From an uncultured Myxococcales bacterium (GTDB lineage: Bacteria > Myxococcota_A > Bradymonadia > REDH01): a DNA stretch of 11,583 bases. Numbering within the stretch: the stretch's first letter is position 1; each line of letters starts with the position of its first letter. The notes under the pieces are model-generated. The model worked only from the letters and a program-made list of their open reading frames with translations. It ran no database searches and had not been told where the DNA came from. Made by a program: the position numbers and the translations under genes. Below are positions 1-11,583 of this stretch, piece by piece. The stretch spans positions 1 to 11,583 of the forward strand of contig CBDUJZ010000161.1 of the NCBI GenBank assembly GCA_965367675.1, given 5' to 3'.

Positions 1-3000
1 GCGCCATCGGCCGCTTTGCTCCGCTGCCGCTGATGCGCAGACGCCAGCCGCTGGTCGATGTTTCGCAGCACCGGCGCGATCTCCTGCCCCAGGCTCGGCG
101 TCGGCCGGTTCAGGCTCGAGGCGATGGCGTCGAGCTTGGCCAGCAGCGGCCCCGTCCACGCCGATGGGTCCGCCGCCGGCGCCGGTCGACTAGCCACTGC
201 GGCATCGGCAATCGTGGTCTGAATGCCCTGCACACCCTGGATGAGTCCACCCATCGCGCCCGTCATCCGACTCACCGGGTCATCCTCCGCGCCGCCCATC
301 ATCTTGCGACGCGCGAACTCAGCCTTGATGCCCTCCCAACGCGTCTTCTCCTCGGCGGACATCGTGCCGCGCATCTCGGCGAGCTTGAGCAGGTTCTGCT
401 CGGCCCCCACGGTCAGCGTCTGAGACTCGCCCAGGTAGTGGTCCGTGAGCAGCGCCTGCACCTCTTTTTCGTTCATCGCCGGCACGATCTTCTCGGCGAT
501 TTTGTTCATGTTTCGATAGCTGCCCTGGAGCTGGAACTTGGGCTCCGTGCGGTACTCGTCGGCCTGCGCAGCCGAGCGGATGTACTGCAGGTTGACGGCC
601 AGCAGCAGGTCGCGCGCGGCGAACATATGACGCAGCACACCCTGCATCTCGGCGAGCTCCACAGCGCTGTACGCGTGGCTCAGCTCGCTGGTCTGCACCT
701 GCTTGCCCTGCGCCATCTCGACGATGCGATACGTGTCCTCGAGCCCGCGCGCGGCGAGCGGCGCGAGCACCGGGTTCGACGTGAGCGCGTTCTCCACATA
801 GCTCAGCGCGAACTGCTCCTCGCGCCCGTCGAGCACATCGCCCAAGTTGTACGTGTCCGCGCGGTTAGCGAGCATGTCCGGGATTTGAAACTTGTCGCCC
901 GACTCCGTGTACGGGTTGCCCGCCATGACGACGATGAACTTCTTGCCCCGCAGGTCGTACGTCCGCGTCTTGCCGTTCCACACACCCTCGATGCGGCGCG
1001 TGGCGTCGCACAGCGAGATGAACTTCTGCAGGAACTCGGGGTGCGTGTGCTGGATGTCGTCCAGGTACAGCATCACGTTGCTGCCCATCTCGAACGCCAG
1101 GTTCACCTTGAGGACTTCTTGCCGCGCGGTGGCGTTGGGCGCCTCGTCCGGGTCGAGCGAATGCACACCGTGGCCGAGCGACGGGCCGTTGATCTTCATG
1201 AAGACCAAGCCGAGCCGATTGGCCACGTACTCCATGAGCGTGGTCTTACCGTAGCCGGGCGGCGAGATGAGCAGCAGCAGGCCCATCAGGTCGGTGCGTT
1301 TTGCCGCGCCGAGCGCACCGATTTGCTTGGCCAAGTTGTCGCCGATGATCGGCAAATACACTTCGTTAATCAGGCGGTTACGGACGAACGAGCTCATCAC
1401 GCGCGGCATGTACTCGTCGAGCCGCAGGCGCTCCCGTTCGCGCTCCACCAGCGCCTGTCGCATGGCCCGGTACGCCCGGTAGGCCGGCACGCGCTCCCGC
1501 ACGAACTGACGCAGTCGCCCCAAGAACTCATCGAGCCGCAACGACATCGTCTGCGACGCGATCCGAGGGTGTTGCCCCAGCAGACCCTCCACCTTCGCGG
1601 TGAGCGACGCGCTGCTCGTCTCACGCTCCAAACGTGAGCCGGTGAGCAGCAGCGCAGCCGCCTCAGGGACCGCGTGCGCCATGGCGGAGAACGCGCTCCC
1701 CGGCGCGCCAACCAACGCGCGCAGCCACGCCAGCGCCACCTCGACCTGGTCGGCGACGCGGCCCTCCAGCTGGCCCAAGTCGTCTTCCAAAACCGCGCGT
1801 CCGCCGTGGCCATCCAGGTGCTTGTGCAGCCCCTCGACGAGCGCCACCGCGTCCGCGCTCGTCGCGAACCGCGGGCGGTCGTTCATCAGCTCTTCGACCA
1901 GGTACGCGCCGGCGTCATGCGCGTCCTCAACGCGTGGCCAGCTCGCGCCGGGCGAGGCGTCGACCAGCTCTGCATCCTCGACCCACGCCGCGATCGCGGT
2001 GCCAATATCCTGCGCCAGCTCGCGCTGCACTTCGCTCTCGCTGAACGCGTCTCGCACCCGTCGAGCGTTGCGCGCGCGGCGCTCCCAAGCGTCCCGCAGC
2101 TTCGCATTCTCGTCCGCATCCAACACGGCCCAGAACAGACACGCCAGCGCGCGCGGCCCCGCACCAAACCGCAGCAGACCGGCGTGCTGTCGCAGCTGCA
2201 GCACCTTCTGCAAAATCAGCGTCGCGTCGGCGTCATGCAGACCCCGCTCGTAGCCCTCGTCATACCGCTGACCGGCCTCGTCGCGGACCAACTTCGACAG
2301 CCCGTCTGAAGACAGCGCAGCCTCTCGCAGCGACGCCATCGACGCACCGCCGATGCCCCCCTCGGCCGCGAAAAGCAGCGTCGCAGCCAGGTACTCGCCC
2401 CGGTACACCTCGGGCGTCTCCGACACCAAGTTCTGCCCCCAAAACGCGCGCGTCTCCAGGAACTCCGGGTCCGAGATCATCTCGTAGAACCCCGTGCCAC
2501 CCAGGTGCAGCGCCATGGCGCCTTCTTTAGGTACCACGGTCAGGTCCAGCGGCTGCGTGTTCACGCTGAACTTGTGCTTGCCGAGCTTGATCGTGTTCGC
2601 GCCGTCTTCGAACAAATCGGCGCGATCGCGCTGGCCGCGCATGGCGTCCTGACGCGTCGACTTGAGCTTCGAGAGCAGCTCATCGGCTTTGACGCTGTCG
2701 CCCAGATCGCGCAGCTGCTCCGCCACTTGGCGCAGCTTCATCACCATCGGATCAGCGGCAAAATACGCGTTGAGCGCGTCCGCTCCGTCTGCCGCGGCGC
2801 TCCGGCGCGCCACGCTCGACATGATACGCTCCGCCGCTCCGACCAGGCTCTCCACCCGCCGCTGACGCTGCTCCAGCAGAGTCTGCTTCTTGGCCTCGAA
2901 CGCGTCCACGACCTCGCCGCGCTTCACGGCCAGGTCGGTCAGGTACTCGTCGAACTCACTGAAGCGCCCTTCCAACTCTTCGAGCTGCAGCAACAGCCGC

Positions 3001-5183
3001 GACAGCTGCTCGTCGCACTTCTCCGGCGAATCGCTCAGCGACAGACCGCTCTGCACCGTCTGGCCGAACAGCGTGAACTGCGCGCCGAACTCCGCGCGGC
3101 CTTCGCGACCCGCGATCTCCTTGCGGTGCGCTTCCAACGTGGCGCGCACGCGGTTCACCTGACCGAACACCTCGCTCACCCCTTCCAGGATGGTGGTGCG
3201 CGCGGTCGGGTCGTCAACCTCAAGGCCAGCGATGACCTCGCTGAGCACCTCGAGTCCGGTGCCGACCTTGTCGATCTCGTCTCGAATCGCGTTCGCGTCA
3301 GACGTCTTCTCGATCGTCTTGATCGCCGCCTCTTGCTTGGTCAGCGACGCTACGAGCGGGGCCAACGACTCGGCGCCGAGCATGAACTTCACGCACGCGT
3401 GGCTCACCTCGTCGAACTTCGCGACGGTCTGCTCTTCGAGCGCGTCGATGCGCGCCAGGTCCACGTAACGAATGTCGCGCAGCGTGATCAGCTGCCCGCG
3501 GTGCGTCCGCAGTCCAGACAGCGCTTCCATGAAACCTTGCACAGACTTCAGGCTGTCCGGCAGCACGCGGTCCACGGCCTCCACGTGTCTCGCGGAGGCC
3601 TCCTGCAGCGCCACGCTGGCCTGCCGCTGGAGCGCGACCACCTTCTCGAACTCGTCGACGATGAGCTCAGACGTCCGGTTGATGCTCTCCAGCGTCTCCG
3701 CCAGCCCCTCCGCCTCGGGCGACCCGAGCCAGTAGAAGTTGTCGAGCATGCGCCGGTTGGCCGAGATCAGGTCCTCGTACAGCCGCCGCGTCGGCGTCGC
3801 GTTGTCGATCATGCGGGCGATCGACAGCCCCTCCGAGATGCCTCGCACCAGCTCCGGGTTGCCGATGCGCGTGTAAAACGAGTCCTCCGTGGGGGCGCTC
3901 GCCGCGAACTCGGCCGTCACGAACGGCGTGGTCCACACCTGCATCGGGTGCACGCGCGTGGGCTCCTGAATCTCGGAGCGGAACACCACCAGGCGGCCGT
4001 CGTCGAACAGCGAGTAGCCGTTGCACACCAACTGCGCCTGCACCTCTTTGCGGATCAGATTGTACGGCAGCAGCAGGTAGCGGCCCTCGGTGGCCGTGTA
4101 GAACACGTACAGCACGTCTTCGCCGTTGGGCGACTTGACCTGCGCATGGAACTGAAGCCCCGAGGGCGCCTCGCCGAAAATCTTGTGGTCGCCGGACTGC
4201 AGATAATAGCCGCCCGGGAAGATGATGCCGTGCTCTTCCGGCAACTCCAGACACGCGTGACCGATGGCGTCGATGCGCTTCACCGACTGCGCGCGCGGGT
4301 TGTACACAAGGTGCCGCCACACCTCTTCGTTATAGGGGCGCACGCGCACCAAAATGAGCCCGCCAATCTTGGCGTACTCGATGCGCGCGTCGTCCAGCGT
4401 CTGGTTCGCGTCGTTGACCGGCTCAGCGTAAATGCCCTTGCCGTCCTCGGTGTTGTTCTCGATCTTGACCGTCAGGTCGCCGCCCACCGCCTCGACGAAC
4501 AGCTCGTCCAGAATCGACACGTGGGGATGCCGCCCCGCCACATGATCCTCGCGCGTGGTAGCGATCCACGAGAACGAGTGGGAGGCCGAGAACACGTGGT
4601 CGCGCTCACCGCGGTTGTCCACGTATTGCGGCCGCCCGTCCGGCATCACGTTCCAGCGGAACACGCGCAGGTCGCGGTCGCCCTTGCCGTAGCGGAACAC
4701 CGCCAGCAGCTTGCCGTCACGCGCGCGCAGCTGCTCCAACTCCGTCTCGCGATAGTACTTGTACAGCTCGCCGAAGTCCTTTCGGAACGCCGGGTCGGCC
4801 AGGAAACCGCCGGCCGAGGTGTCCATATCACCGACCGGGAACTCGATGCCCTCCGGCGTCTCCTCCATCGTGTGCACGCTGAACACATCGCCCAGCGCCA
4901 CGTCCTGCTTGAGGCCGAGCAACACGTTGTAGCCGAACAGCAAATTGCCGCCCACGTGCAGGATGTCGCGCGGCAGACAGTTGTGCTCCGTGCGGACGCG
5001 GCTCTGCGCGCGCACGGCCAGCTCACTGGAGCCGAACGCTTCGGTGCGGGCGGTGTTCAGCCGCTCCGCGGACGTGGCCAGCGTCTGGCCAAGCGCGACT
5101 AGGCGCGCACGGATTACGTCGTAGTTGCCGGCGTCAATGCCGTCCGGCGACACGCTTCCTTCAACTTCGGGATCGGCGCTCAT
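1..5183 (-). CDS. Giant protein with a C-terminal MoxR/CbbQ-like AAA+ ATPase domain; at least 1727 codons in the window, 3' end runs off the left edge (no stop seen)
   Basis: Translating the minus strand by hand from the ATG at 5183..5181 (MSADPEVEGSV...) gives one open frame all the way to position 1. It is absent from the ORF track only because it has no stop in the window. All other minus ORFs listed in 1-5183 are in the other two frames. An in-frame TAA lies 10 codons upstream (5213..5211). Walker A is ...LLLISPPGYGKTTLMEYV... (plus-strand ccgcccggctacggtaagacc reverse-complemented at ~1240-1262; Lys at about aa 1313). Walker B is ...VMLYLDDIQHTHPEF... (~1052-1075). A MoxR-type segment ...KKFIVVMAGNPYTESGDKFQIPDMLANRADTYNLGD... 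parallels MoxR ...[26 protein letters not shown].... The ~1150 aa N-terminal to the ATPase contain a beta-rich stretch (RVFRWNVMPDG..., GYYLQSGDHKIFGE...) followed by a long helical, coiled-coil-like stretch. A further ~350 aa follow the ATPase and continue out of the window. Confidence 0.85.
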   Translation of the reverse strand, partial: MSADPEVEGSVSPDGIDAGNYDVIRARLVALGQTLATSAERLNTARTEAFGSSELAVRAQSRVRTEHNCLPRDILHVGGNLLFGYNVLLGLKQDVALGDVFSVHTMEETPEGIEFPVGDMDTSAGGFLADPAFRKDFGELYKYYRETELEQLRARDGKLLAVFRYGKGDRDLRVFRWNVMPDGRPQYVDNRGERDHVFSASHSFSWIATTREDHVAGRHPHVSILDELFVEAVGGDLTVKIENNTEDGKGIYAEPVNDANQTLDDARIEYAKIGGLILVRVRPYNEEVWRHLVYNPRAQSVKRIDAIGHACLELPEEHGIIFPGGYYLQSGDHKIFGEAPSGLQFHAQVKSPNGEDVLYVFYTATEGRYLLLPYNLIRKEVQAQLVCNGYSLFDDGRLVVFRSEIQEPTRVHPMQVWTTPFVTAEFAASAPTEDSFYTRIGNPELVRGISEGLSIARMIDNATPTRRLYEDLISANRRMLDNFYWLGSPEAEGLAETLESINRTSELIVDEFEKVVALQRQASVALQEASARHVEAVDRVLPDSLKSVQGFMEALSGLRTHRGQLITLRDIRYVDLARIDALEEQTVAKFDEVSHACVKFMLGAESLAPLVASLTKQEAAIKTIEKTSDANAIRDEIDKVGTGLEVLSEVIAGLEVDDPTARTTILEGVSEVFGQVNRVRATLEAHRKEIAGREGRAEFGAQFTLFGQTVQSGLSLSDSPEKCDEQLSRLLLQLEELEGRFSEFDEYLTDLAVKRGEVVDAFEAKKQTLLEQRQRRVESLVGAAERIMSSVARRSAAADGADALNAYFAADPMVMKLRQVAEQLRDLGDSVKADELLSKLKSTRQDAMRGQRDRADLFEDGANTIKLGKHKFSVNTQPLDLTVVPKEGAMALHLGGTGFYEMISDPEFLETRAFWGQNLVSETPEVYRGEYLAATLLFAAEGGIGGASMASLREAALSSDGLSKLVRDEAGQRYDEGYERGLHDADATLILQKVLQLRQHAGLLRFGAGPRALACLFWAVLDADENAKLRDAWERRARNARRVRDAFSESEVQRELAQDIGTAIAAWVEDAELVDASPGASWPRVEDAHDAGAYLVEELMNDRPRFATSADAVALVEGLHKHLDGHGGRAVLEDDLGQLEGRVADQVEVALAWLRALVGAPGSAFSAMAHAVPEAAALLLTGSRLERETSSASLTAKVEGLLGQHPRIASQTMSLRLDEFLGRLRQFVRERVPAYRAYRAMRQALVERERERLRLDEYMPRVMSSFVRNRLINEVYLPIIGDNLAKQIGALGAAKRTDLMGLLLLISPPGYGKTTLMEYVANRLGLVFMKINGPSLGHGVHSLDPDEAPNATARQEVLKVNLAFEMGSNVMLYLDDIQHTHPEFLQKFISLCDATRRIEGVWNGKTRTYDLRGKKFIVVMAGNPYTESGDKFQIPDMLANRADTYNLGDVLDGREEQFALSYVENALTSNPVLAPLAARGLEDTYRIVEMAQGKQVQTSELSHAYSAVELAEMQGVLRHMFAARDLLLAVNLQYIRSAAQADEYRTEPKFQLQGSYRNMNKIAEKIVPAMNEKEVQALLTDHYLGESQTLTVGAEQNLLKLAEMRGTMSAEEKTRWEGIKAEFARRKMMGGAEDDPVSRMTGAMGGLIQGVQGIQTTIADAAVASRPAPAADPSAWTGPLLAKLDAIASSLNRPTPSLGQEIAPVLRNIDQRLASAHQRQRSKAADG

Positions 5184-5276: not shown

Positions 5277-7376
5277 TCAGTCGATGCCGAGCTCTTTCGC
5301 CTTCTCCATCAGCGCAGCGAGCTTGGCCGAGTCGACCTCTCCGGACTTGGAGGCGAGCTTGGCGAGCAGCGCCGTCACCGACAGGTTCTTGAGCGTCTCC
5401 GAGTTCTCGGACGCGCCCGCCAGCAGGCCCTTCACGTCGTCGCGCAGGTTCGAATCGCCGTCCAGGTAGCCGCCGAGCACCTTCTGCGCCGTCGGCGAAG
5501 TCTCCATCACGTTGTCCATGGCGTTGCTCACACTCATGGCCTTGACGAACTTGTCGAAGAACTGGCCGTCGCCGCCCACGATCTGGATCTTGGCCTCCTC
5601 GAACGCCTTGCCCATGACCGCCGCTTGGTGCTCCGCCATACGCTCCTGCGTGAGCAGCTGCGCCAGCGCGATCTCCTTCTGTTGCTCCAAACGGATGCGG
5701 TATTCCTCGTGCTCGCGACCCGCGCCGTCCAGCTCGAGCATCGCCTTCGCCTTCTCGCGCAGACCGCTCGCCTCGGCGACCAGTCGCTTCTCGATCGCGT
5801 CGGCCTCGGCCACACCGCGACGCTCGATGGTCTGCGCTTCGGCCTCGTCCACACGAATCCGCGCCATGCCCTTGGCTTCGGTGCCCTCGGCCTCGGCGCT
5901 CATCGTCTCGCGCGTCACCTTAGCCTCGGCCATGCCCTGCTTCTCGATCGCCATCGCGTTGGCTTCCTTGACCTTGACCTCGGCCAGGCCCTGCGCGGCG
6001 ACCTCGGCCTGCACACCCTCGGCCAGGCGAATCTTGCCCTTGGCCAGCGCGTCGGCGGCCTCCAGCTCGGCCTCGGCACCAATGATGCGCTCTTGCGCCT
6101 GGTGCTTGGCGACCTGTTGCGACGCCTCGGCCGCTTTGATCGCCTTGACCAGCTCGGCCTGCGCGTCACCTTCGGCGGTCACAACCTTGGCGTCCTTGTG
6201 ACGCGTCGCGTCCGCCACGAGCCGCAGGTCTTTGATGCGCTCCTCTTCTTCGGCGACGGTCTTGTCGACGGCGATACGCGCGCGCACCACGTCGGCGATC
6301 TCCTTCTTCTCGCGCTCGAGTTCCTTCTCCTTGGCGATGCGCATCAGCTCGACCTCGCGCTCACGCTCGATCTGCTTCAGGTCCTCCGCCTTTTGCACCT
6401 CGACGGTCTCCATCACCACGATACGCTCGCGCTGCTTGGTCGCCACGTCGATGTTGCGCTGCATCTCTTGCTCGCGCTTCTTGACCTCTTCTTGGGCCAC
6501 TTGGCGCGCCAGCTCGGTCTCCTTGGACTCAGAGATCTTGTAGCGGCTCGCCTCGTTCTGCTCGCGGGTCTGCGCCACGTCGATCTCGCGGGCCTTGCGG
6601 GCCTCGGCCTCGGCGCGCTGCTGGTCGTAGCGGAACACAGCCTCGTCGGCGGTCAGGTCCTGCTGACCGATGTCCATCCGCTCTTTCTGCTTCAGCTCGT
6701 TCGTCTGCACGTTCTGCGCCGCGGTCATCTCGGTGATCTTCCGGATGCCCTGCGCGTCGAGAATGTTGGAGGGGTCGAGCCGGTTCAGCGGCGTCTGCTC
6801 CAGGTAGTCGATGGCCGCGTCCTCGAGCACGTAGCCGTTCAGGTCCTTGCCGATGACCGAGATGATGTCGTCTCGGAACTCGTCCCGCTTGGTGTACAAC
6901 TCCTCGAATTGCAGCCGCTTACCGACCGTCTTGAGCGCCTCGGAGAACTTGGCGGCGAACAGCGTCTCGAGCGTGGCGTGGTCCGACGCGCGCTGGCAGC
7001 CGATCGACTGCGCGACCTTGAGCACGTCCTCACCCGTCTTGTTCACCCGAACGAAGAACGTGACCTTGATATCGGCGCGGATGTTGTCCTCGCAGATCAG
7101 GCCGTCCTCGCCGCGTCGGTCGACCTCGATGGTCTTGACGGAGATATCCATGATCTCCGCGCGGTGAATGATGGGCAGCACGGTCGCGCCGGTGAACGTG
7201 ACGGTCGGCTCCGCCTTCATCGTGTTCACGATGAGCGCCTTGCCCTGGTCCACCTTGCGGTAAAACTGAGCGACCATCGCGAGCAGGCCCACGACGAGCA
7301 CAGCCACGACAGCGACGATCAACAGCGCGGCTTGCGCGAGAGTGCTTAGAGCGAAGAAGAAGATGGGTGCAGACAT
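5277..7376 (-). CDS. Flotillin family protein (SPFH/band-7 domain, YqiK/FloT-like), 699 aa
   Basis: ATG at 7376..7374 with a GAGG motif ~10 nt upstream on the minus strand. N-terminal hydrophobic membrane anchor (MSAPIFFFALSTLAQAALLIVAVVAVLVVGLLAMV). SPFH core: ...TVLPIIHRAEIMDISVKTIEVDRRGEDGLICEDNIRADIKVTFFVRVNKTGEDVLKVAQSIG.... Then a long charged coiled-coil with Glu/Ala-rich 'EA repeat' region (EAELEAADALAKGKIRLAEGVQAEVAAQG...) and a C-terminal tail. The overall architecture matches what I recall of E. coli YqiK and B. subtilis FloT. Stop TGA at 5279..5277. Confidence 0.9.
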   Translation of the reverse strand: MSAPIFFFALSTLAQAALLIVAVVAVLVVGLLAMVAQFYRKVDQGKALIVNTMKAEPTVTFTGATVLPIIHRAEIMDISVKTIEVDRRGEDGLICEDNIRADIKVTFFVRVNKTGEDVLKVAQSIGCQRASDHATLETLFAAKFSEALKTVGKRLQFEELYTKRDEFRDDIISVIGKDLNGYVLEDAAIDYLEQTPLNRLDPSNILDAQGIRKITEMTAAQNVQTNELKQKERMDIGQQDLTADEAVFRYDQQRAEAEARKAREIDVAQTREQNEASRYKISESKETELARQVAQEEVKKREQEMQRNIDVATKQRERIVVMETVEVQKAEDLKQIEREREVELMRIAKEKELEREKKEIADVVRARIAVDKTVAEEEERIKDLRLVADATRHKDAKVVTAEGDAQAELVKAIKAAEASQQVAKHQAQERIIGAEAELEAADALAKGKIRLAEGVQAEVAAQGLAEVKVKEANAMAIEKQGMAEAKVTRETMSAEAEGTEAKGMARIRVDEAEAQTIERRGVAEADAIEKRLVAEASGLREKAKAMLELDGAGREHEEYRIRLEQQKEIALAQLLTQERMAEHQAAVMGKAFEEAKIQIVGGDGQFFDKFVKAMSVSNAMDNVMETSPTAQKVLGGYLDGDSNLRDDVKGLLAGASENSETLKNLSVTALLAKLASKSGEVDSAKLAALMEKAKELGID

Positions 7377-7481: not shown

Positions 7482-8327
7482 TCACGACTTCCGGGGGCTC
7501 GACCGGCTTTGCACCGGCGCCGTCTCAGCGGCCTCGACGCCGGCGTCACGGACAATGGCATCCAGGGCGGCCAGCTCGGCCTCGAGATCCCCGTCGCCAT
7601 CCGACGCCACAAAGTGGTCCATCGACTCGATCTGGTAGGCTTCTTCGCCCGCCACATACTCGACCACAAGCGCGGCATCTCCACGCTTGAGGGTGTTGGG
7701 TTCGGCGCACCGCACCTCGATGAGCAGCCCGGCGCCGCCATCGCGGACCTCGGCCTGGCCAAACGTCTCGGTCACGCGGCCGGTGCGTACCTCGCAGACC
7801 ACGCCCACGGAGTCGGCGCGCGACGCGGCCTCCTGCGTCTCGAACAGCTTACCGAGCGGACGAACGCTGCGCTTGGTGAGGGGCACGGCGATGCCGATGG
7901 AGAGCAGGAATGTGACCGACGCGATGACCGATGCGGGAAGCGCGAGCTCGGCGCGGGCCGCGAAGTGCATGCACAGGAAGCTGGCGATCCAGCACCAGAG
8001 CACCAGCACGGAGAGCACGACCGTCGCGGGCGCTTTGTCGAGCGCCAGCGCGTGCACCACATGCCACGTAAAGCTGTGGGAGCCTTGGCCGCTGCCGACG
8101 CCCTCGGCACCATCGAGCGCACCGTCGGCGCCCTCCAATGCACCGTCCAAAGCGCCGTCGACGGCACCATCCACGCCACCGTCCAGCACGCCGTCCAGGT
8201 CGAAATCCAGCGACTCGACACCGATGGCGCCCGCGATGACGAACAGCCAGTAGAGGACGATCAGCCCCATCAGAACCGTGAAGATTCCGGTCGGGAGTGT
8301 CAGCATCTCTGTGAGCAGCGGGCTCAT
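7482..8327 (-). CDS. NfeD-like / YqiJ-like inner-membrane protein (N-terminal TM helices, C-terminal OB-fold), ~281 aa
   Basis: ATG at 8327..8325; the track's first 'M' at 8330 is a TTG. Two hydrophobic segments (GIFTVLMGLIVLYWLFVIAGAIG; TVVLSVLVLWCWIASFLCM... VIASVTFLLSIGIAV). The C-terminal beta-rich segment ...GVVCEVRTGRVTETFGQAEVRDGGAGLLIEVRCAEPNTLKRGDAALVVEY... is typical of the NfeD short-form OB-fold. It sits directly upstream of a flotillin gene, as in yqiJ-yqiK and nfeD-floT pairs. Stop TGA at 7484..7482. Confidence 0.8.
   Translation of the reverse strand: MSPLLTEMLTLPTGIFTVLMGLIVLYWLFVIAGAIGVESLDFDLDGVLDGGVDGAVDGALDGALEGADGALDGAEGVGSGQGSHSFTWHVVHALALDKAPATVVLSVLVLWCWIASFLCMHFAARAELALPASVIASVTFLLSIGIAVPLTKRSVRPLGKLFETQEAASRADSVGVVCEVRTGRVTETFGQAEVRDGGAGLLIEVRCAEPNTLKRGDAALVVEYVAGEEAYQIESMDHFVASDGDGDLEAELAALDAIVRDAGVEAAETAPVQSRSSPRKS
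8100..8210 (-). repeat. Period-12 nt imperfect tandem repeat (about 8 units) inside the nfeD-like CDS, encoding (x-h-D-G)n
   Basis: Plus-strand units ggcaccatcgag / cgcaccgtcggc / gccctccaatgc / accgtccaaagc / gccgtcgacggc / accatccacgcc / accgtccagcac / gccgtccaggtc. They translate on the minus strand to DLDGVLDGGVDGAVDGALDGALEGADGALDGAEG, sitting between TM1 and TM2 of the NfeD-like protein. Confidence 0.55.
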
Positions 8328-8381
8328 CAAGGTCCAGGAAGAAGCGGAGAACGAAACGGGGGAGCGGTGACCGGGTCGAGA

Positions 8382-8786
8382 TTACTCGGGCGTGCGGTGA
8401 TCGATGGAGACCGAGTTGATGCAGAAGCGCACGCCCGTCTCGGTGGGGCCGTCGTTGAACACGTGACCCAGGTGAGCGTCGCAGCTGGCGCAGGTGACCT
8501 CGGTGCGCGTCATGCCGTGGCTGACGTCTTCGATGAACTTCACCGAGCCCTCGACCGCGCGGTCGAACGAAGGCCAACCGCAGTGCGCATCAAACTTGGT
8601 GTCCGACGTAAACAGCAGCGCGTCGCAGCAGATGCAGCGGTACGTGCCGTCCTCGAACTGGTTCCAGTACTTGCCGGTAAACGGCCGCTCGGTCGCCGCG
8701 TTCTGCGTGACTTCGAATGCGAGGTCGCCCAGACGTTCGCGCAACGCGGACGTGGCGGACGGAATGGAACGGGTGTCGTCACTCAT
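8382..8786 (-). CDS. msrB: Peptide-methionine (R)-S-oxide reductase MsrB, 134 aa
   Basis: Internal ATG at 8786..8784, preceded by a strong SD: AAGGAG (plus 8793-8798 reverse-complemented) with a 6-nt spacer. The track's 215-aa version extends upstream without support. Both zinc CxxC pairs are present ([11 protein letters not shown] and [13 protein letters not shown]). The resolving-Cys motif HCGWPSF and the catalytic-Cys motif [11 protein letters not shown] are the SelR/MsrB hallmarks. Stop TAA at 8384..8382. Confidence 0.92.
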
Positions 8787-8954
8787 CGGATGCTCCTTTG
8801 TTCTTGAGGTGACAGAATACATGGGCGCGGCCGCGATCGCACTCGTGGCAGCCCCCACGCGCAACGGCTCTACGGGCCAAGGGATTCGCGGCGTGAGAGG
8901 GTTGTGTGCGGGGGACATGTTGGCCTCGGTGATCCGCGGTTGCCCTCCTACCTC

Positions 8955-8969
8955 GCAACGTCCGTGCCA
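8955..8969 (-). promoter_or_regulatory. Candidate sigma-54 (RpoN) -24/-12 promoter driving the msrB-nfeD-flotillin-AAA+ gene string
   Basis: The reverse complement of plus 8951-8970 is TTGGCACGGACGTTGCGAGG, i.e. TGGCACG-N4-TTGC. This matches the RpoN consensus TGGCAC-N5-TTGC with exact GG/GC spacing. Predicted TSS is near plus 8943, giving a ~157-nt leader before the msrB ATG at 8786. It lies in the divergent intergenic region shared with a GAFTGA-containing bEBP gene. Confidence 0.55.
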
Positions 8970-9029
8970 AACTGCGCATCCCCGCGTTTGCTGGGGAAAC
9001 CCCGCCGAAGGATGCTGCGGACCACACAA

Positions 9030-9040
9030 CGTGTTACACG
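9030..9040. promoter_or_regulatory. 11-bp palindrome CGTGTtACACG, a candidate enhancer (UAS) or autoregulatory operator
   Basis: Perfect inverted repeat with 5-bp arms around a central T. It is centred ~92 bp upstream of the predicted sigma-54 TSS and ~35 bp upstream of the activator's own ATG. A related half-site GTCACAC recurs at 9056-9062. Confidence 0.3.
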
Positions 9041-9070
9041 GAATAACCGAAACCCGTCACACTGCGTAAC

Positions 9071-10870
9071 ATGCTTCAATCCAACGTATTGCTCCGGGAC
9101 GTGCTCCCCATCGCGCGCACGCACACCGACGGCGCGGTCGCCGGACATGTGAAGGCCGAGCTGTCGAGTCGGCTGGAGTTGGACGGGGTGCCGGTGGATA
9201 CGGTCGACGCGTTCTGCCAGGCGTTCGAGGTGTTCTCCCGCGCGCTGATCTCGGCGTCGATCCCGACCATCTATGGCCCGGAGTTCGCGGAGACCCTGGC
9301 CAGCATTCTATTCGGGCGCGACCCGCTGCTCACGCTCCTGAGCCCGCAGCTGCCCAACCGCCGCATCCTGATCGTGGGCGAGCGCGGCACTGGAAAGGAG
9401 TCGGTCGCCCGCGTGCTCAGCGCCGGCCTCGCCGCCTTTGGCGGCGGCCGCCCGGTGGTGGCGGTCAACGCGGCCGCGCTCCCGGACACGCTGCTCGAGT
9501 CGACGCTGTTCGGGCACGTGCGGGGTGCGTTCACCGGCGCGACTCGGGCGCGCACGGGGCTCATGTCGGAGCTGCATCCCGGCGGCGTGTTGTTCTTCGA
9601 CGAGGCGGGCGAAGCGTCGCCCGCGCTGCAGGCCAAGCTGCTGCGGGTGTTCCAGACCGGCGAGTACGCCCCCGTGGGCGCGCCCGAGGCACCGTCGCGG
9701 GCCGACTATCACGTGGTCGCCGCCACCAACGCCCCGCTCAAGGCGCTGCAGCTCGGCACCGCCATGCGCGCGGACCTGTTCGACCGCCTCGCCGCGCCGC
9801 TGATCGAGCTGCCGCCGCTGCGCACGTTGCTGCACGACCAAACGCGGGGCCGCGCCATCTTCCAGTGTCTGGCGATGGGCGTGATTCGGGAACTCGGCGC
9901 GACCGGGCGGACCGGCGCCGGCACGCCATCTGTGGTCCGCCGCGCGGGCGACCGGCGGGAGATCAACTTTGAGCTGTGGGCGACCCCGCGCGCCGCCCGA
10001 ATCGCCCGGAGCGTTCAAGAAGGCACCCAGGGCTACGCGTGGCCCGGCAACCTGCGCGAGGCGGCGCAGCGCATCCGTCAAACGCTGTTCATGGGCTCGG
10101 CGGCGCTCAGACCGACGAACCATCGCGCGGCAAGCGCGGCGCCCAAACCACCCGCAAACGCCATCGTGTTGACGGTGCCGGAGTCCGGCACGTTGAAGAC
10201 ACAATTGGAGGCCGCCGAGCGCCAACTGTACGCCCGCGCGGCCACGCAGCACGAGTCGATCATCGCGGTCGCCGATGCGCTCGGGGTCGCCCGGCAAACG
10301 GCATCCCGGCGCCTGAGCTACTTCGAGATCCCGGCGCCTGGTAGTTCGACCGATACGCCGACGAGCACGCCCCACGCCACCGTCCCGATGCCCACCCGAA
10401 GGCCGCTCGGCACGCCCAACGCCACCAACCACCCGGGCTCGGACGCCATGGGTCATCGCCCGCCGGACGCGTCCGTGTCGGCAGCGGTGTTCTCGCCGTT
10501 CACCGCGCCGCGCATCTCCCGCCGCTTGCTGGCGATTATGGAGCGCAGCGCGCCGCAACCGGACAACCTGACGGCAGCCGTGGTCATGCACGCCGAGGCG
10601 CTGCGCGCGGCGGTCGGCGACTATCCGTTTGTGGACCTCAAGCTCGTTTCGTCCATCGAGCACACGCTGCTGGAGCTCATCAACGACATCCTGCCGTCGC
10701 ACTCTGAACCCCACGTCCGGCTGGTGGCCGCTGCGGTCGCCTACTTTGTGGAGGTCGACGACGAGGACCACGACCTGTCGTCCGCGATCGGGCTGGATGA
10801 CGACGTGCGGGTGGTGAACGAGGTGGCCCGTGTGTTGGGGCGCGACGACCTGGAGATCCGCGTGGAGTGA
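9071..10870 (+). CDS. Sigma-54-dependent transcriptional activator (bEBP) with atypical architecture: no receiver/sensor N-domain, AAA+ sigma-54 domain, Fis-type HTH, then a P/T/S-rich linker and an extra acidic C-terminal domain
   Basis: ATG at 9071; in-frame TAA at 9044-9046; no obvious SD. Walker A is ILIVGERGTGKESVARVL (9361-9400). The GAFTGA loop is ESTLFGHVRGAFTGATRARTG (GAFTGA at nt 9524-9541). Walker B is GVLFFDEAGEASPALQAKLLRVFQTGEYAPVG. Sensor I is HVVAATNAPL. R-finger region is DLFDRLAAPLIELPPLR. Sensor II is YAWPGNLREAAQRI. The Fis-like HTH is ...HESIIAVADALGVARQTASRRLSYFEI at about aa 385-425. After it come a low-complexity stretch (PAPGSSTDTPTSTPHATVPMPTRRPLGTPNATNHPGSD) and a ~120-aa domain ending ...YFVEVDDEDHDLSSAIGLDDDVRVVNEVARVLGRDDLEIRVE. 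Only ~65 aa precede the AAA+ domain. Confidence 0.88.
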   Translation: MLQSNVLLRDVLPIARTHTDGAVAGHVKAELSSRLELDGVPVDTVDAFCQAFEVFSRALISASIPTIYGPEFAETLASILFGRDPLLTLLSPQLPNRRILIVGERGTGKESVARVLSAGLAAFGGGRPVVAVNAAALPDTLLESTLFGHVRGAFTGATRARTGLMSELHPGGVLFFDEAGEASPALQAKLLRVFQTGEYAPVGAPEAPSRADYHVVAATNAPLKALQLGTAMRADLFDRLAAPLIELPPLRTLLHDQTRGRAIFQCLAMGVIRELGATGRTGAGTPSVVRRAGDRREINFELWATPRAARIARSVQEGTQGYAWPGNLREAAQRIRQTLFMGSAALRPTNHRAASAAPKPPANAIVLTVPESGTLKTQLEAAERQLYARAATQHESIIAVADALGVARQTASRRLSYFEIPAPGSSTDTPTSTPHATVPMPTRRPLGTPNATNHPGSDAMGHRPPDASVSAAVFSPFTAPRISRRLLAIMERSAPQPDNLTAAVVMHAEALRAAVGDYPFVDLKLVSSIEHTLLELINDILPSHSEPHVRLVAAAVAYFVEVDDEDHDLSSAIGLDDDVRVVNEVARVLGRDDLEIRVE

Positions 10871-10894: not shown

Positions 10895-11583
10895 CTATCC
10901 GGCCACGCGCCACACCTCGGCGAACGGCGTCTGCGCGTAGGTCCCGCTGAACTCCACCACGTCGTCGGCCGTGAACCACAGGCCATCCGCGCCCGGGCCG
11001 TCGTAGGACACCATCGTCCGCAGGTTGCCCGACCGGTCGAACGTGCGCGTGGTGTAGTCATCCAGCTCATCGTCGCCGGTGCCCCAAACGCCGTCCGCGC
11101 CCGGTCCGTCCAGCGTCGCATCGAAACGCAGGCCGCCATTTTCGTCGATGTCGCGAATGCGACCGAAGCCGATCACGTCGTCCGCGGTAAACGGGATCCC
11201 GTCGTCGCCGAGCGCAACGGTGTGCCGTTCGATGTACCGGGTGGCGGACGTGTACTCCCACGCGATCGCGCCACCGCCGCCCACGAGGAACGTGTCGTCG
11301 TCGGTGAGCCAGATGCCGTCGGCGCCTGGATCGCTGCTGATGCCAAACCGGATGACGCGCCCTTCATCGTCGAGCTCCTGCCAGTCGACGCGCGAAATCG
11401 TGTCGTCCCCGGGGCTGTTCCCGCAGTCCGAGGTATCCCAGGTCTCGTCGGGCCCCCAATCGCTGTGGTGCACGGTGCCTTCAATAGACTCCCCTACCGG
11501 TCCAGCATCGGCGTCGGCGACGGTATCCGGCGAGGCGTCGCCGGGGACATCTAGGTCGCCGGTGTCGCCACCGATCACGTCGG
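10895..11583 (-). CDS. Asp/Gly/Trp-rich tandem-repeat protein, probably secreted or surface and Ca-binding-like; C-terminal 229 codons only (5' end outside window)
   Basis: Minus-strand frame stays open to the right window edge; the 'M' at 11578 in the track is an internal GTG. A ~35-40 aa repeat recurs at least four times: DPGADGIWLTDDD / GDDGIPFTADD / DGPGADGVWGTGDDELDD / DGPGADGLWFTADD. One EF-hand-like DxDxNG loop is present (DIDENGG). Stop TAG at 10897..10895. Convergent with the bEBP gene, 24 nt apart. Confidence 0.6.
   Translation of the reverse strand, partial: DVIGGDTGDLDVPGDASPDTVADADAGPVGESIEGTVHHSDWGPDETWDTSDCGNSPGDDTISRVDWQELDDEGRVIRFGISSDPGADGIWLTDDDTFLVGGGGAIAWEYTSATRYIERHTVALGDDGIPFTADDVIGFGRIRDIDENGGLRFDATLDGPGADGVWGTGDDELDDYTTRTFDRSGNLRTMVSYDGPGADGLWFTADDVVEFSGTYAQTPFAEVWRVAG

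Follow-up and report, generated by a model that had tools for sequence, protein, structure and literature searches.

Enhancer-binding proteins are the textbook case of modular coupling between a signal and an ATPase. PspF and HrpR/HrpS consist of an AAA+ domain and a helix-turn-helix (HTH), have no N-terminal regulatory domain and are controlled in trans. LevR-type activators carry an N-terminal DNA-binding domain, with PRD, EIIA and EIIB modules located C-terminal to AAA+. To our knowledge, nearly all known control of enhancer-binding proteins is exerted either from the N-terminal side or by trans partners. The canonical order of domains is regulatory, catalytic and DNA-binding, and some members lack the first or the last of these; GAFTGA is the signature of the sigma-54 contact (PMC7175178). 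Reports on NorR and PexR describe attached GAF domains that negatively control the AAA+ domain in cis (PMC2941729, PMC12754779).

Were a conserved domain to follow the DNA-binding domain on a tether, it would extend this repertoire with a new geometry of control. Such an arrangement is found in a sigma-54-dependent activator encoded in the window analyzed here, a stretch of DNA of 11,583 nucleotides.

Results

The activator gene occupies positions 9071..10870 of the + strand (599 aa, ATG start, stop codon at 10868-10870), as read from the list of open reading frames and the translation. Its product is laid out as N-terminal helices, an AAA+ core, a Fis-type HTH, a disordered tether and an acidic five-helix bundle. 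Three full-length orthologues (P0001-P0003) share 55-59% identity with it, and one orthologue carries the label Bradymonadia. The preliminary description had named a frameshifted fusion with a separate downstream gene as one finding that would overturn its proposal; the gene proved to be single and uninterrupted. From about position 9120 to the stop codon, GC3 keeps to one phase at 0.83-0.97, and the fused ORF is present in four orthologous loci from different samples, although only three to four such loci are independent. Because the GC3 phase is continuous and the four loci are fused alike, the ORF is neither a frameshift product nor a chance reading frame.

The first 62 residues (9071..9256, + strand) form a three-helix element that is specific to the activator family, with AF2 helices at residues 4-15, 22-34 and 42-61 and pLDDT values of 90-97. 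This part had been described as some 65 aa ahead of the AAA+ core, without an N-terminal sensor. The length is about right (~62 residues), and Pfam gave no match to a known sensor or receiver domain (response-regulator, GAF, PAS, V4R and FHA types) in aa 1-97 at E≤10. However, the stretch is not empty, and the description as sensorless is overstated, as aa 1-62 constitute a conserved, family-specific helical element. The same element occurs in relatives of ~430 aa (P0004-P0009), which stop at the HTH; F55 is invariant, and identity among the orthologues is 48%. The N-terminal element could itself be regulatory.

The AAA+ sigma-54 interaction domain with its lid spans aa 63-346 (9257..10108, + strand). 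Pfam Sigma54_activat (PF00158) matches aa 97-242 (E 2.5e-39, 135 bits against a cut-off of 20.2), the best Foldseek matches are ZraR (1ojl), FlrC (4qhs), FleQ, NtrC1 and PspF, and the core is 77-80% identical among the orthologues. The Walker A motif GERGTGKE (aa 103-110; 9377..9400, + strand) falls in invariant alignment columns, and both the Walker B residues DE (aa 177-178) and the GAFTGA loop-1 motif (aa 152-157; 9524..9541, + strand) are invariant among relatives. The R-finger region lies at aa 233-239 and WPGNLRE at aa 324-330. The Fis-type HTH, initially put at about aa 385-425, is placed instead at aa 373-420 (10187..10330, + strand) by Pfam HTH_50 (24.5 bits, below the cut-off of 27). 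AF2 positions its helices at 375-393, 397-404 and 408-417 with pLDDT about 96, and it aligns with the HTH of generic sigma-54 activators. The protein thus combines PF00158 bearing Walker A and B motifs, GAFTGA, an HTH C-terminal to AAA+ and a promoter at a plausible target. It is a functional-looking sigma-54 enhancer-binding protein belonging to a small clade; proteins of this class activate the sigma-54 holoenzyme in an ATP-dependent manner.

The tail that follows the HTH measures 179 aa, close to the ~175 aa first estimated, and is unusual, as had been claimed. Across 119 sigma-54 activators in which AAA+ is followed by an HTH, the median tail is 4 aa and the 90th percentile 13 aa; tails longer than 33 aa occur only in the three orthologues of the 599-aa activator. 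The proposed succession of a Pro/Thr/Ser-rich linker and an acidic domain also stood. The tether covers aa 428-471 (10352..10483, + strand; pLDDT, composition and orthologue spacing), is predicted to be disordered (pLDDT 33-38) and consists of 45% Pro/Ser/Thr. It is only 26% identical among the orthologues, and the spacing from HTH to domain varies between 26 and 53 aa. The C-terminal domain covers aa 472-599 (10484..10867, + strand; AF2 and profile search). Modeled in isolation with AF2, it is a confident five-helix bundle (pLDDT 85.4, pTM 0.82), and its helices are reproduced in the full-length AF2 model, whose pTM of 0.65 is uninformative on inter-domain docking. The domain has a net charge of -12 and a pI of 4.6, compared with +10 for the AAA+ part. 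Its motif half, 76% identical among the orthologues, matches the AAA+ core in conservation, a level that speaks for an important function of the domain. As modeled, the C-terminal region makes up a module that folds on its own, is selectively conserved and is joined by a flexible tether. Such a module fits a regulatory or partner-binding role, which is the part of the earlier signal-input proposal that holds; the partners named for it find no comparative support, as discussed below.

Pfam (E≤10), NCBIfam and PADLOC returned no match to the C-terminal domain, and aa 425-599 are without a Pfam match. A profile search of PDB sequences gave no solved homologue below E 0.09, and BFVD gave no structural match. 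The database search suggested earlier for residues ~470-599 therefore led to no curated family, but it did lead to an uncurated one, with 783 cluster representatives at E≤1e-3 and 205 at E≤1e-10. Most members are stand-alone proteins of 120-140 aa and some are tandem pairs; the median pI is 4.45 and the median net charge -13. Carriage by mobile elements was considered and rejected, as no relatives were found in viral contigs and the activator's own domain had no plasmid match.

An alignment of 122 family sequences defines a DUF1232-type core motif, VAAAVAYFVEVDDEDHDLSSAIGLDDDVRVVNEVARVLG, at aa 552-590 (10724..10840, + strand). Its pattern is A-x2-Y-F-x4-D-x3-D-x2-S-x2-G-x-D-D-x2-V, and the near-invariant residues are Y558, F559, D564, D568, S571, G574, D577, D578, V581, N583 and V585. 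One member, P0203, matches positions 4-35 of the 37 in PF06803 with 22.5 bits (cut-off 23), and weak matches to this model are found in 11 of the 122 members; the activator's own domain does not match PF06803 (gathering score 23 bits) even at E≤10. Several members bear JGI 'YkvA' labels, which we did not adopt, since those members fall short of PF06803 in Pfam. Transmembrane-grade segments are not a feature of the family: the maximum 19-residue hydropathy has a median of 1.01 and exceeds 1.6 in only 2 of 122 members. Judged by sequence, the DUF1232 link of the family holds only at the motif level. A literature search yielded no functional account of DUF1232/YkvA.

The genomic surroundings of the stand-alone members are recurrent. 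A DrmD-like SNF2 helicase gene lies directly downstream of the domain gene in 11 of 66 sampled loci, from several phyla, and additionally in L155. The two genes in those 11 loci overlap or abut (-53 to +2 bp), and in one case (L029) the domain is fused in-frame to the DrmD-like helicase. P0121, the closest stand-alone relative of the activator's domain, is encoded 3 bp upstream of an SNF2 helicase. The genes downstream of stand-alone relatives match the models for DrmD (E 5e-89) and DrmMI/type IIG methyltransferase (E 2.5e-88), and a HerA-like ATPase is a neighbor in 5 sampled loci. In P0123 and P0126, the domain is joined with sigma-70 region 4 and alpha-CTD-like modules. Of the stand-alone members sampled, about half reside in housekeeping-looking Acidimicrobiales neighborhoods or metabolic contexts without an NTPase partner; a general role in gating NTPases is not universal. 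The bundle of the activator is the product of an in-frame fusion: its gene is free-standing elsewhere and is recurrently the leader of DrmD-like SNF2 helicase/methyltransferase modules.

A sigma-54 promoter (-24 GG, -12 GC), TGGCACGGACGTTGC (8955..8969, - strand), points away from the activator gene and lies 102 bp from the ATG of that gene; it is an exact consensus match of the form TGGCAC-N5-TTGC. Neither its position nor its orientation differs in L001/L002, L006 and L153. The first gene after it is msrB (SelR; 8382..8786, - strand; Pfam SelR E 2.4e-48, supported by GC3 phase and with its start checked). A three-gene cassette follows on the same strand, beginning with a 282-aa protein without a Pfam match (7482..8330, - strand). 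The second gene encodes a 699-aa flotillin-like protein (5277..7376, - strand), whose weak NCBIfam FloT match (E 9.8e-06) is far below the cut-off. The third encodes a giant ATPase with DUF3686, DUF7902 and AAA domains (1..5183, - strand), represented by its N-terminal ~1727 aa because it runs off the window start; its Pfam matches are DUF3686 (E 1e-194), DUF7902 (E 4.5e-25) and AAA/AAA_5, and its orthologue in L001 has 1909 aa. These four genes are the presumed targets of the activator. With msrB as the first target, the peroxide-sensing activator PexR of Myxococcus was considered as a model and rejected: its regulatory domain is an N-terminal GAF, so its architecture is unrelated.

A shared heptamer, GTTACAC, was noted, as was a motif CGTCACACTG(C/T)GTAAC near the ATG. 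No inverted repeats of at least 10 bp that might serve as enhancer (UAS) sites were found in the divergent intergenic regions.

The cassette was compared across 80 metagenome DUF3686 loci without the activator. The flotillin-like homologue is present in 74 of them, and in 62 of the 80 its gene is immediately preceded by that of the 282-aa homologue. By this gene order, the cassette is a widespread three-gene unit. None of the 80 loci contains the tail domain, free or fused, or an exact sigma-54 promoter, and only 2 have a sigma-54-type AAA+ gene of any kind, both at a distance. A literature search returned nothing on DUF3686.

Discussion

Our best reading, to which we assign about an even chance, is that the activator drives the divergent promoter and that the tethered bundle acts in cis as its regulatory input. 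The activator would turn on the promoter at 8955-8969 and thereby msrB and the cassette. In the resting state, the tethered acidic bundle would hold the basic AAA+/HTH part inactive, possibly by preventing hexamers from forming or by covering the DNA-binding surface. A signal might then release the bundle; it could be a partner protein, or a ligand or cation that binds the cluster of conserved Asp, Ser and Asn residues. Such C-terminal control would mirror the N-terminal receiver or GAF control in NtrC1, DctD and NorR. The recurrent partners of the domain elsewhere are NTPases (SNF2 helicases, including one fusion, and HerA-like ATPases), which points to action on the attached ATPase. The 'inverted regulatory logic' that the preliminary description saw in the activator is kept here as a hypothesis.

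It is conceivable, if rather unlikely, that the tail domain has an accessory part, for example in dimerization or in recruiting another factor, and that control comes from the N-terminal element or an unlinked trans partner. The short relatives P0004-P0009 share aa 1-95 with the activator, including the confidently predicted N-terminal element, and end directly after the HTH. They work without the domain, so their control must come from the N-terminal element or a trans partner, and the same may hold for the activator; a search within 10 kb of P0004 and P0005 for a free copy of the domain, as expected from fission, found none. Additionally, 13 of the 119 related activators have at most 100 aa before the AAA+ core, so activators with short N-termini are common and regulated in other ways. 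The tandem domain pairs in the family suggest self-association. However, in the tail domain the motif half is conserved to the level of the catalytic core, whereas the N-terminal element is less conserved than this half, and repeated coupling or fusion to NTPases suits a regulator better than a passive dimerizer.

A proposal that the tail domain binds a product of the cassette seems distinctly improbable to us. In this scheme, the flotillin-like protein, the 282-aa protein or the giant ATPase would report membrane or cassette status to transcription by feedback of the PspA/PspF kind. In its favor, all four orthologous loci place the activator next to the cassette in divergent orientation, with a conserved sigma-54 promoter linking the two; large ATPases accompany the domain elsewhere, and one is part of the cassette; and PspF-like control in trans is an established mode (PMC7175178). 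Conversely, the absence of the domain from the 80 other cassette loci indicates that the cassette proteins can generally do without it, and as these loci lack the sigma-54 promoter as well, the proposal of a PspA-like contact is left without comparative support. The domain recurs with ATPases of the SNF2 and HerA types, and not with SPFH or DUF3686 proteins. Moreover, no PspA-family gene was found with Pfam or NCBIfam among the genes neighboring the activator, and the models for PspF score far under their cut-offs (TIGR02974, 152 bits against 443.55; PRK11608, 124 against 529), with the match restricted to the AAA+ core. The earlier suggestion of flotillin, NfeD or the giant ATPase as a PspA-like partner is accordingly not upheld.

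We give still less credence, and regard as very unlikely, the idea that the acidic bundle is an intramolecular DNA mimic that occupies the HTH or other DNA-binding surfaces and thereby gates DNA binding instead of the ATPase, with the stand-alone forms gating helicases and methyltransferases. The uniform acidity of the family agrees with it, as does the direct attachment of the bundle after the HTH by a flexible tether. The partners are also all DNA-acting: the Fis-type HTH, sigma-70 region 4/alpha-CTD-like modules, SNF2 with methyltransferase, and HerA-like proteins. Finally, the tail might be an artefact: a gene of its own further downstream that a sequencing frameshift or misassembly has fused to the activator, or a chance open frame in high-GC DNA. 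This reading could appeal to the hundreds of other genomes that encode the domain as its own gene, to the visibly frameshifted database relative P0129 and to the long spurious ORFs that occur in high-GC DNA, but it is effectively refuted by the single GC3 phase across the HTH-tail junction, by four in-frame fusions from independent samples in which the tether length varies and the frame is never lost, and by HMM matches to the domain that are confined to the activator ORF at the orthologous loci.

The preferred cis-acting reading of the bundle can be extended, with considerable doubt. The bundle might serve DNA-acting P-loop NTPases and transcription factors alike as a transferable module for gating or sensing, and its capture would have put the cassette under a signal that normally switches on defense helicases; we consider this unlikely. 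Its scope, which we hold to be just as doubtful, would take in DrmD-type SNF2 defense helicases, HerA-like ATPases, the activator and the giant proteins with sigma-70 region 4/alpha-CTD-like modules. If true, this would amount to a new class of regulator and a new, C-terminal mode of enhancer-binding-protein control. The family itself comprises ~780 sequence clusters without a Pfam or NCBIfam model and is a recurrent leader of, and once fused to, DrmD-like SNF2 helicase/methyltransferase defense modules. It thus offers a testable handle on how DrmD-like helicases stay in check, and the cassette has here an identifiable, manipulable transcriptional switch.

Relation to known systems

The stand-alone relatives resemble components of DISARM class 1 and ARMADA-type modules (DrmD/ArmA with DrmMI/ArmB) in that they lead operons of a helicase and an adenine methyltransferase, a likeness based on the DrmD and DrmMI models. 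The window differs in having no such helicase or methyltransferase, and no small leader protein appears in the gene lists published for these systems. With DUF1232/YkvA (PF06803, at COG level 'uncharacterized membrane protein YkvA'), the family shares a motif that in some members covers nearly the whole 37-position model; however, its proteins are soluble and strongly acidic, and the motif is embedded in a five-helix bundle.

Like PspF and HrpR/HrpS, the activator has an AAA+ domain with GAFTGA followed by a Fis-type HTH, no recognized N-terminal sensor and a divergent sigma-54 promoter. Unlike them, it has a conserved 62-aa N-terminal element and a 179-aa extension after the HTH. The cis repression of the ATPase by an attached domain that we propose, and infer for this activator, is shared with NtrC1/DctD, NorR and PexR. 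In those proteins, the receiver or GAF domain directly precedes AAA+, whereas the tethered candidate of the activator follows the HTH and has an unrelated fold. By Pfam and NCBIfam, the activator differs from LevR in having no PRD, EIIA or EIIB module and no N-terminal DNA-binding domain, its Fis-type HTH being located after AAA+; LevR nevertheless provides the precedent for regulatory modules positioned C-terminal to the AAA+ core.

Results

The activator gene (9071–10870, plus strand) starts with an ATG and encodes 599 residues. Pfam places a Sigma54_activat AAA+ domain at aa 97–242 (E 2.5e-39) and an HTH_50 helix-turn-helix at aa 373–420 (24.5 bits, slightly below the cut-off). Neither aa 1–97 nor aa 425–599, which includes the part of the tail (~470–599) for which the preliminary description had proposed a domain-database search, matches any Pfam family even at E<=10. 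Matches to the NCBIfam equivalogs (NorR, PspF, NifA, RtcR, NtrC and others) are confined to the AAA+ core and stay well short of their cut-offs. None of the Walker A, Walker B and GAFTGA motifs, the arginine-finger region or the WPGNLRE sensor-II segment is damaged, and none varies among the relatives. Judged by its sequence, the protein should be a genuine sigma-54 activator, since the motifs for catalysis and for sigma-54 contact are complete. The ORF, AAA+ core and HTH had been accurately described; the HTH does follow the core, and only its placement is corrected here. Overall, the identity and architecture of the activator as described are very probably correct. A lid insertion of ~23 aa (window 9902–9970, aa 278–300, GATGRTGAGTPSVVRRAGDRREI...), predicted as a small beta-hairpin, occurs in the four long orthologues (53% identity) and is largely missing from the short relatives.

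Because the window is GC-rich (61–74% in 500-bp windows) and crowded with spurious ORFs, codon-position GC was examined. GC3 in the activator is 0.83–0.97 in a single phase from ~9120 to the stop, and the phase is constant across the HTH/tail junction. The tail is therefore not a frameshifted fusion with a downstream gene, as the preliminary description had allowed; the extension also occurs in the orthologues P0001–P0003. Downstream lies a convergent 227-aa ORF (10895–11578, minus strand) with good GC3 bias, which has no Pfam, NCBIfam or PADLOC match; among the other orthologous loci that were examined, none carries a homologue.

In the full-length AlphaFold2 model of the activator (49-sequence alignment, mean pLDDT 85.5, pTM 0.65), N-terminal helices at 4–15, 22–34 and 42–61 (pLDDT 90–97) precede the AAA+ domain with its lid, a three-helix HTH (375–417) and a C-terminal five-helix bundle (472–599). 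Disorder is predicted at 351–358 and 428–471 (pLDDT 33–38). The N-terminus is thus short, as first described, but not featureless, with three confident helices predicted within aa 1–61. The best Foldseek matches in the PDB are AAA+ domains of sigma-54 activators (ZraR 1ojl, FlrC 4qhs, FleQ, NtrC1, LuxO and PspF), with a target-normalised TM of ~0.7 over about one third of the query; none of these matches includes the tail. The tether (aa 428–471) is 45% Pro/Ser/Thr, and the net charge of the bundle is −12 (pI 4.6) versus +10 for the AAA+ part. Behind its HTH, the activator carries a conserved acidic domain that is helical and autonomous and is joined by a flexible tether.

A search of 5.8 billion proteins returned only three full-length relatives of the activator, P0001–P0003 (55–59% identity), all with the same C-terminal extension and one from a MAG labelled Bradymonadia. 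Shorter relatives of ~430 aa (P0004–P0009) share the N-terminal ~95 aa, the AAA+ core and the HTH, and end directly after the HTH. Among the four orthologues, which represent only three to four independent loci, identity is 77% in the AAA+ core, 63% in the HTH, 26% in the tether (HTH-to-domain spacing 26–53 aa) and 55% in the whole C-terminal domain, rising to 76% in its last 54 aa. The annotated start of P0003 (L153:1160–1330) is ~50 codons too late; the upstream frame is open and encodes the same MQSxxLL N-terminus. Another protein, P0129, is a frameshifted fragment of a further orthologue, its second half being an out-of-frame translation.

The post-HTH extension had been called atypical, and a census of 119 sigma-54 activators with an AAA+ core followed by an HTH, drawn from a homologue search, bears this out. 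The post-HTH tail has a median of 4 aa and a 90th percentile of 13 aa, and it exceeds 33 aa only in three orthologues (152–175 aa). A short N-terminus is far less unusual, since 13/119 have <=100 aa before the core. A review (PMC7175178) gives the canonical layout as R-C-D, with some proteins lacking R or D, and does not mention a post-D domain. The layout C-D-tether-X is rare, with X from an uncurated DUF1232-like family.

An HMM built from the four orthologous tails and searched against 1.84 billion cluster representatives matched 783 proteins at E<=1e-3, 205 of them at E<=1e-10; almost all consist of the domain alone and are 120–140 aa long. In an evolutionary sense, the tail did arise by fusion, with what is an independent gene in other genomes. 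Tandem double copies occur in P0188, P0213 and P0218. Two giants, P0123 (1156 aa) and P0126 (1333 aa), each carry two copies together with RNA polymerase alpha-CTD-like repeats and a sigma-70 region 4 HTH, a further and independent case in which the domain has been joined to modules for transcription or DNA binding. The stand-alone proteins have no significant Pfam, NCBIfam or PADLOC family match. Searches of viral contigs found no relatives, and the tail domain encoded in the window has no plasmid match.

In a 122-sequence alignment, D56, A89, Y92, F93, D98, D102, S105, G108, D111, D112, V115 and V119 (domain numbering) are near-invariant, and A60, L70, N117 and G124 are strongly conserved below that level. 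The key residues in the activator are Y558, F559, D564, D568, S571, G574, D577, D578 and N583. Modelled alone with this alignment, the domain is a confident five-helix bundle (pLDDT 85.4, pTM 0.82), in which the acidic residues lie where helix 4 ends, between helices 4 and 5, and on the opening turn of helix 5. The tail profile found nothing below E 0.09 among PDB sequences, and a BFVD comparison gave no match.

The sole recurring weak Pfam signal is DUF1232 (PF06803), seen in 11/122 members (best E 1.8e-05). In the member P0203, the conserved motif aligns to positions 4–35 of the 37-position model, with 22.5 bits against a cut-off of 23. JGI names several members 'uncharacterized membrane protein YkvA (DUF1232 family)'; these do not reach PF06803. 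We conclude that the tail is a soluble bundle of helices with a core motif of the DUF1232 type, and that it falls narrowly beyond the limits of the curated family. We found no literature on the function of DUF1232 or YkvA.

Genomic neighbours of the stand-alone domain were surveyed at 66 loci (62 from GTDB species representatives and 4 from exact-sequence look-ups), which represent 66 of roughly 780 family clusters and were chosen by one peptide pattern; genes were called anchored on the domain match and neighbours were clustered. At 11/66 loci, the small gene lies directly 5' of a gene for a ~970-aa protein on the same strand and overlaps or abuts its start (spacing −53 to +2 bp). The larger protein hits the PADLOC DrmD model (E 5e-89) and, in Pfam, SNF2-rel_dom/Helicase_C. 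By record title, these loci span several phyla (Priestia, a planctomycete, Desulfobacterium, Geobacter, Thermodesulfobacteriota, Desulfamplus, Burkholderiales and others). The domain gene leads DrmD-like helicase operons at L007, L009, L018, L027, L032, L038, L056, L057, L060, L063, L064 and L155. At 8 helicase-linked loci, the helicase is followed by an MmeI-type, type IIG or DrmMI-like methyltransferase (E 2.5e-88). The helicase-linked loci sit in defence islands adjoining Cap4 nuclease or McrBC-like genes. At L029:4954–8493, the domain (aa 11–127) is fused in frame to the N-terminus of a DrmD-like helicase in a 1179-aa protein. The stand-alone protein closest to the activator's tail, P0121 (E 6e-22), is encoded 3 bp 5' of an SNF2 helicase of 966 aa, behind which a protein of at least 1276 aa is encoded. 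The L029 fusion and the location of P0121 tie the domain to the helicase.

A HerA-like ATPase is a second NTPase pairing. At five loci (L008, L010, L044, L067, L069), the domain gene directly follows one for a P-loop protein of ~580 aa, whose PADLOC matches are weak and of HerA/mad8 type and which has no match in Pfam. In about 25 housekeeping-looking Acidimicrobiales loci, NUDIX, PIG-L, amidohydrolase and enolase genes recur in a shared synteny, which we regard as uninformative.

The real genes from 1 to about 9000 are all on the minus strand by GC3: msrB (8382–8786), a 282-aa protein (7482–8330), a 699-aa flotillin-like protein (5277–7376) and a giant DUF3686 + DUF7902 + AAA ATPase, whose gene extends beyond the first base of the window. 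A sigma-54 element (TGGCACGGACGTTGC, 8955–8969, minus strand) is a perfect match 102 bp from the activator ATG, and it keeps its position and orientation in the orthologous loci L001/L002, L006 and L153. It is a conserved sigma-54 promoter, putatively cognate to the activator, and the genes behind it are the presumed targets. Synteny between activator and cassette is kept in L001/L002 and L006; L153 ends inside msrB. The msrB gene lies between promoter and cassette in 3/4 orthologous loci (the window, L001:8636–9031 and L153:2–205) and is absent from L006, and a 236-aa gene precedes it in L001 and L153. This placement hints at an oxidative-stress link for the regulon. The msrB leader is unusually long (~158 nt, window 8787–8944, minus strand), from the predicted transcription start at ~8944 to the ATG at 8786. 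It contains an in-frame upstream ATG (MSPAHNPL...), which may be an alternative msrB start or open a leader peptide.

The short motifs GTTACAC/GTTGCAC and CGTCACACTG(C/T)GTAAC are common to the orthologous intergenic regions just 5' of the activator ATG (window 9025–9070, L006:1745–1775, L001:9975–9985). They sit about 80–125 bp upstream of the predicted sigma-54 transcription start and are candidate enhancer or autoregulatory sites. A look for enhancer sites as inverted repeats of >=10 bp between the divergent genes found none.

Discussion

We propose that the tail works in cis and holds back or gates its own activator, at the level of AAA+ assembly or of DNA binding. Release could come from a ligand or cation at the conserved Asp/Ser/Asn cluster, or from a partner. 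An action in cis appears the most likely, because the domain is repeatedly attached to, or translationally coupled with, the NTPase that it accompanies. The cis-regulatory role is a tentative assignment, somewhat short of an even chance; identity, architecture and cis-regulation taken together are about as likely to be right as wrong.

The tail could instead be a non-sensing accessory, with control exerted through an N-terminal element or a trans factor. The tail-less relatives must rely on such control; for the activator itself, we consider this rather unlikely.

The preliminary description suggested that the tail could contact, for example, flotillin, NfeD or the giant ATPase, as PspA contacts PspF; this would amount to feedback from the cassette. 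DUF3686 giants are widespread (Myxococcota, Actinomycetota, Gammaproteobacteria, Acidobacteriota), and we found no literature on DUF3686. If the tail were a general cassette sensor, its domain would be expected beside the cassette elsewhere. At 80 metagenome loci (L073–L152) centred on the giant's N-terminus with <=10 kb of flank, 74 have the flotillin-like gene and 62 have the 282-aa gene; practically every locus that includes upstream DNA has them. The three genes form a widespread cassette found in several phyla. The tail domain, free or fused, and the exact sigma-54 promoter each occur in 0/80, and any sigma-54-type AAA+ gene in 2/80, both distant. The activator and its promoter are attached to the cassette only in the activator's clade, and activator and tail are therefore a lineage-specific regulatory addition. 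Comparative genomics gives no support to the proposed contacts, and feedback from the cassette is doubtful, although a clade-specific interaction of the domain with cassette proteins may exist. Intramolecular mimicry of DNA by the tail is more improbable still. An artefact is scarcely conceivable, given the unbroken GC3 phase and the shared extension.

The cis-acting tail that we favor would parallel, in its function, the N-terminal GAF or receiver domains of NorR, PexR and NtrC1, but from the opposite end of the protein. Its family resembles DUF1232/YkvA in the core motif; in contrast to the 'membrane protein' name of YkvA, it is soluble, only 2/122 members having a TM-grade hydrophobic window, and acidic, with a median pI of 4.45 and a median net charge of −13. 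As published, DISARM I and ARMADA II comprise an SNF2 helicase and adenine methyltransferase pair, and their gene lists name no small leader protein. The tail-domain operons encode a similar helicase–methyltransferase pair, with the small domain gene in front.
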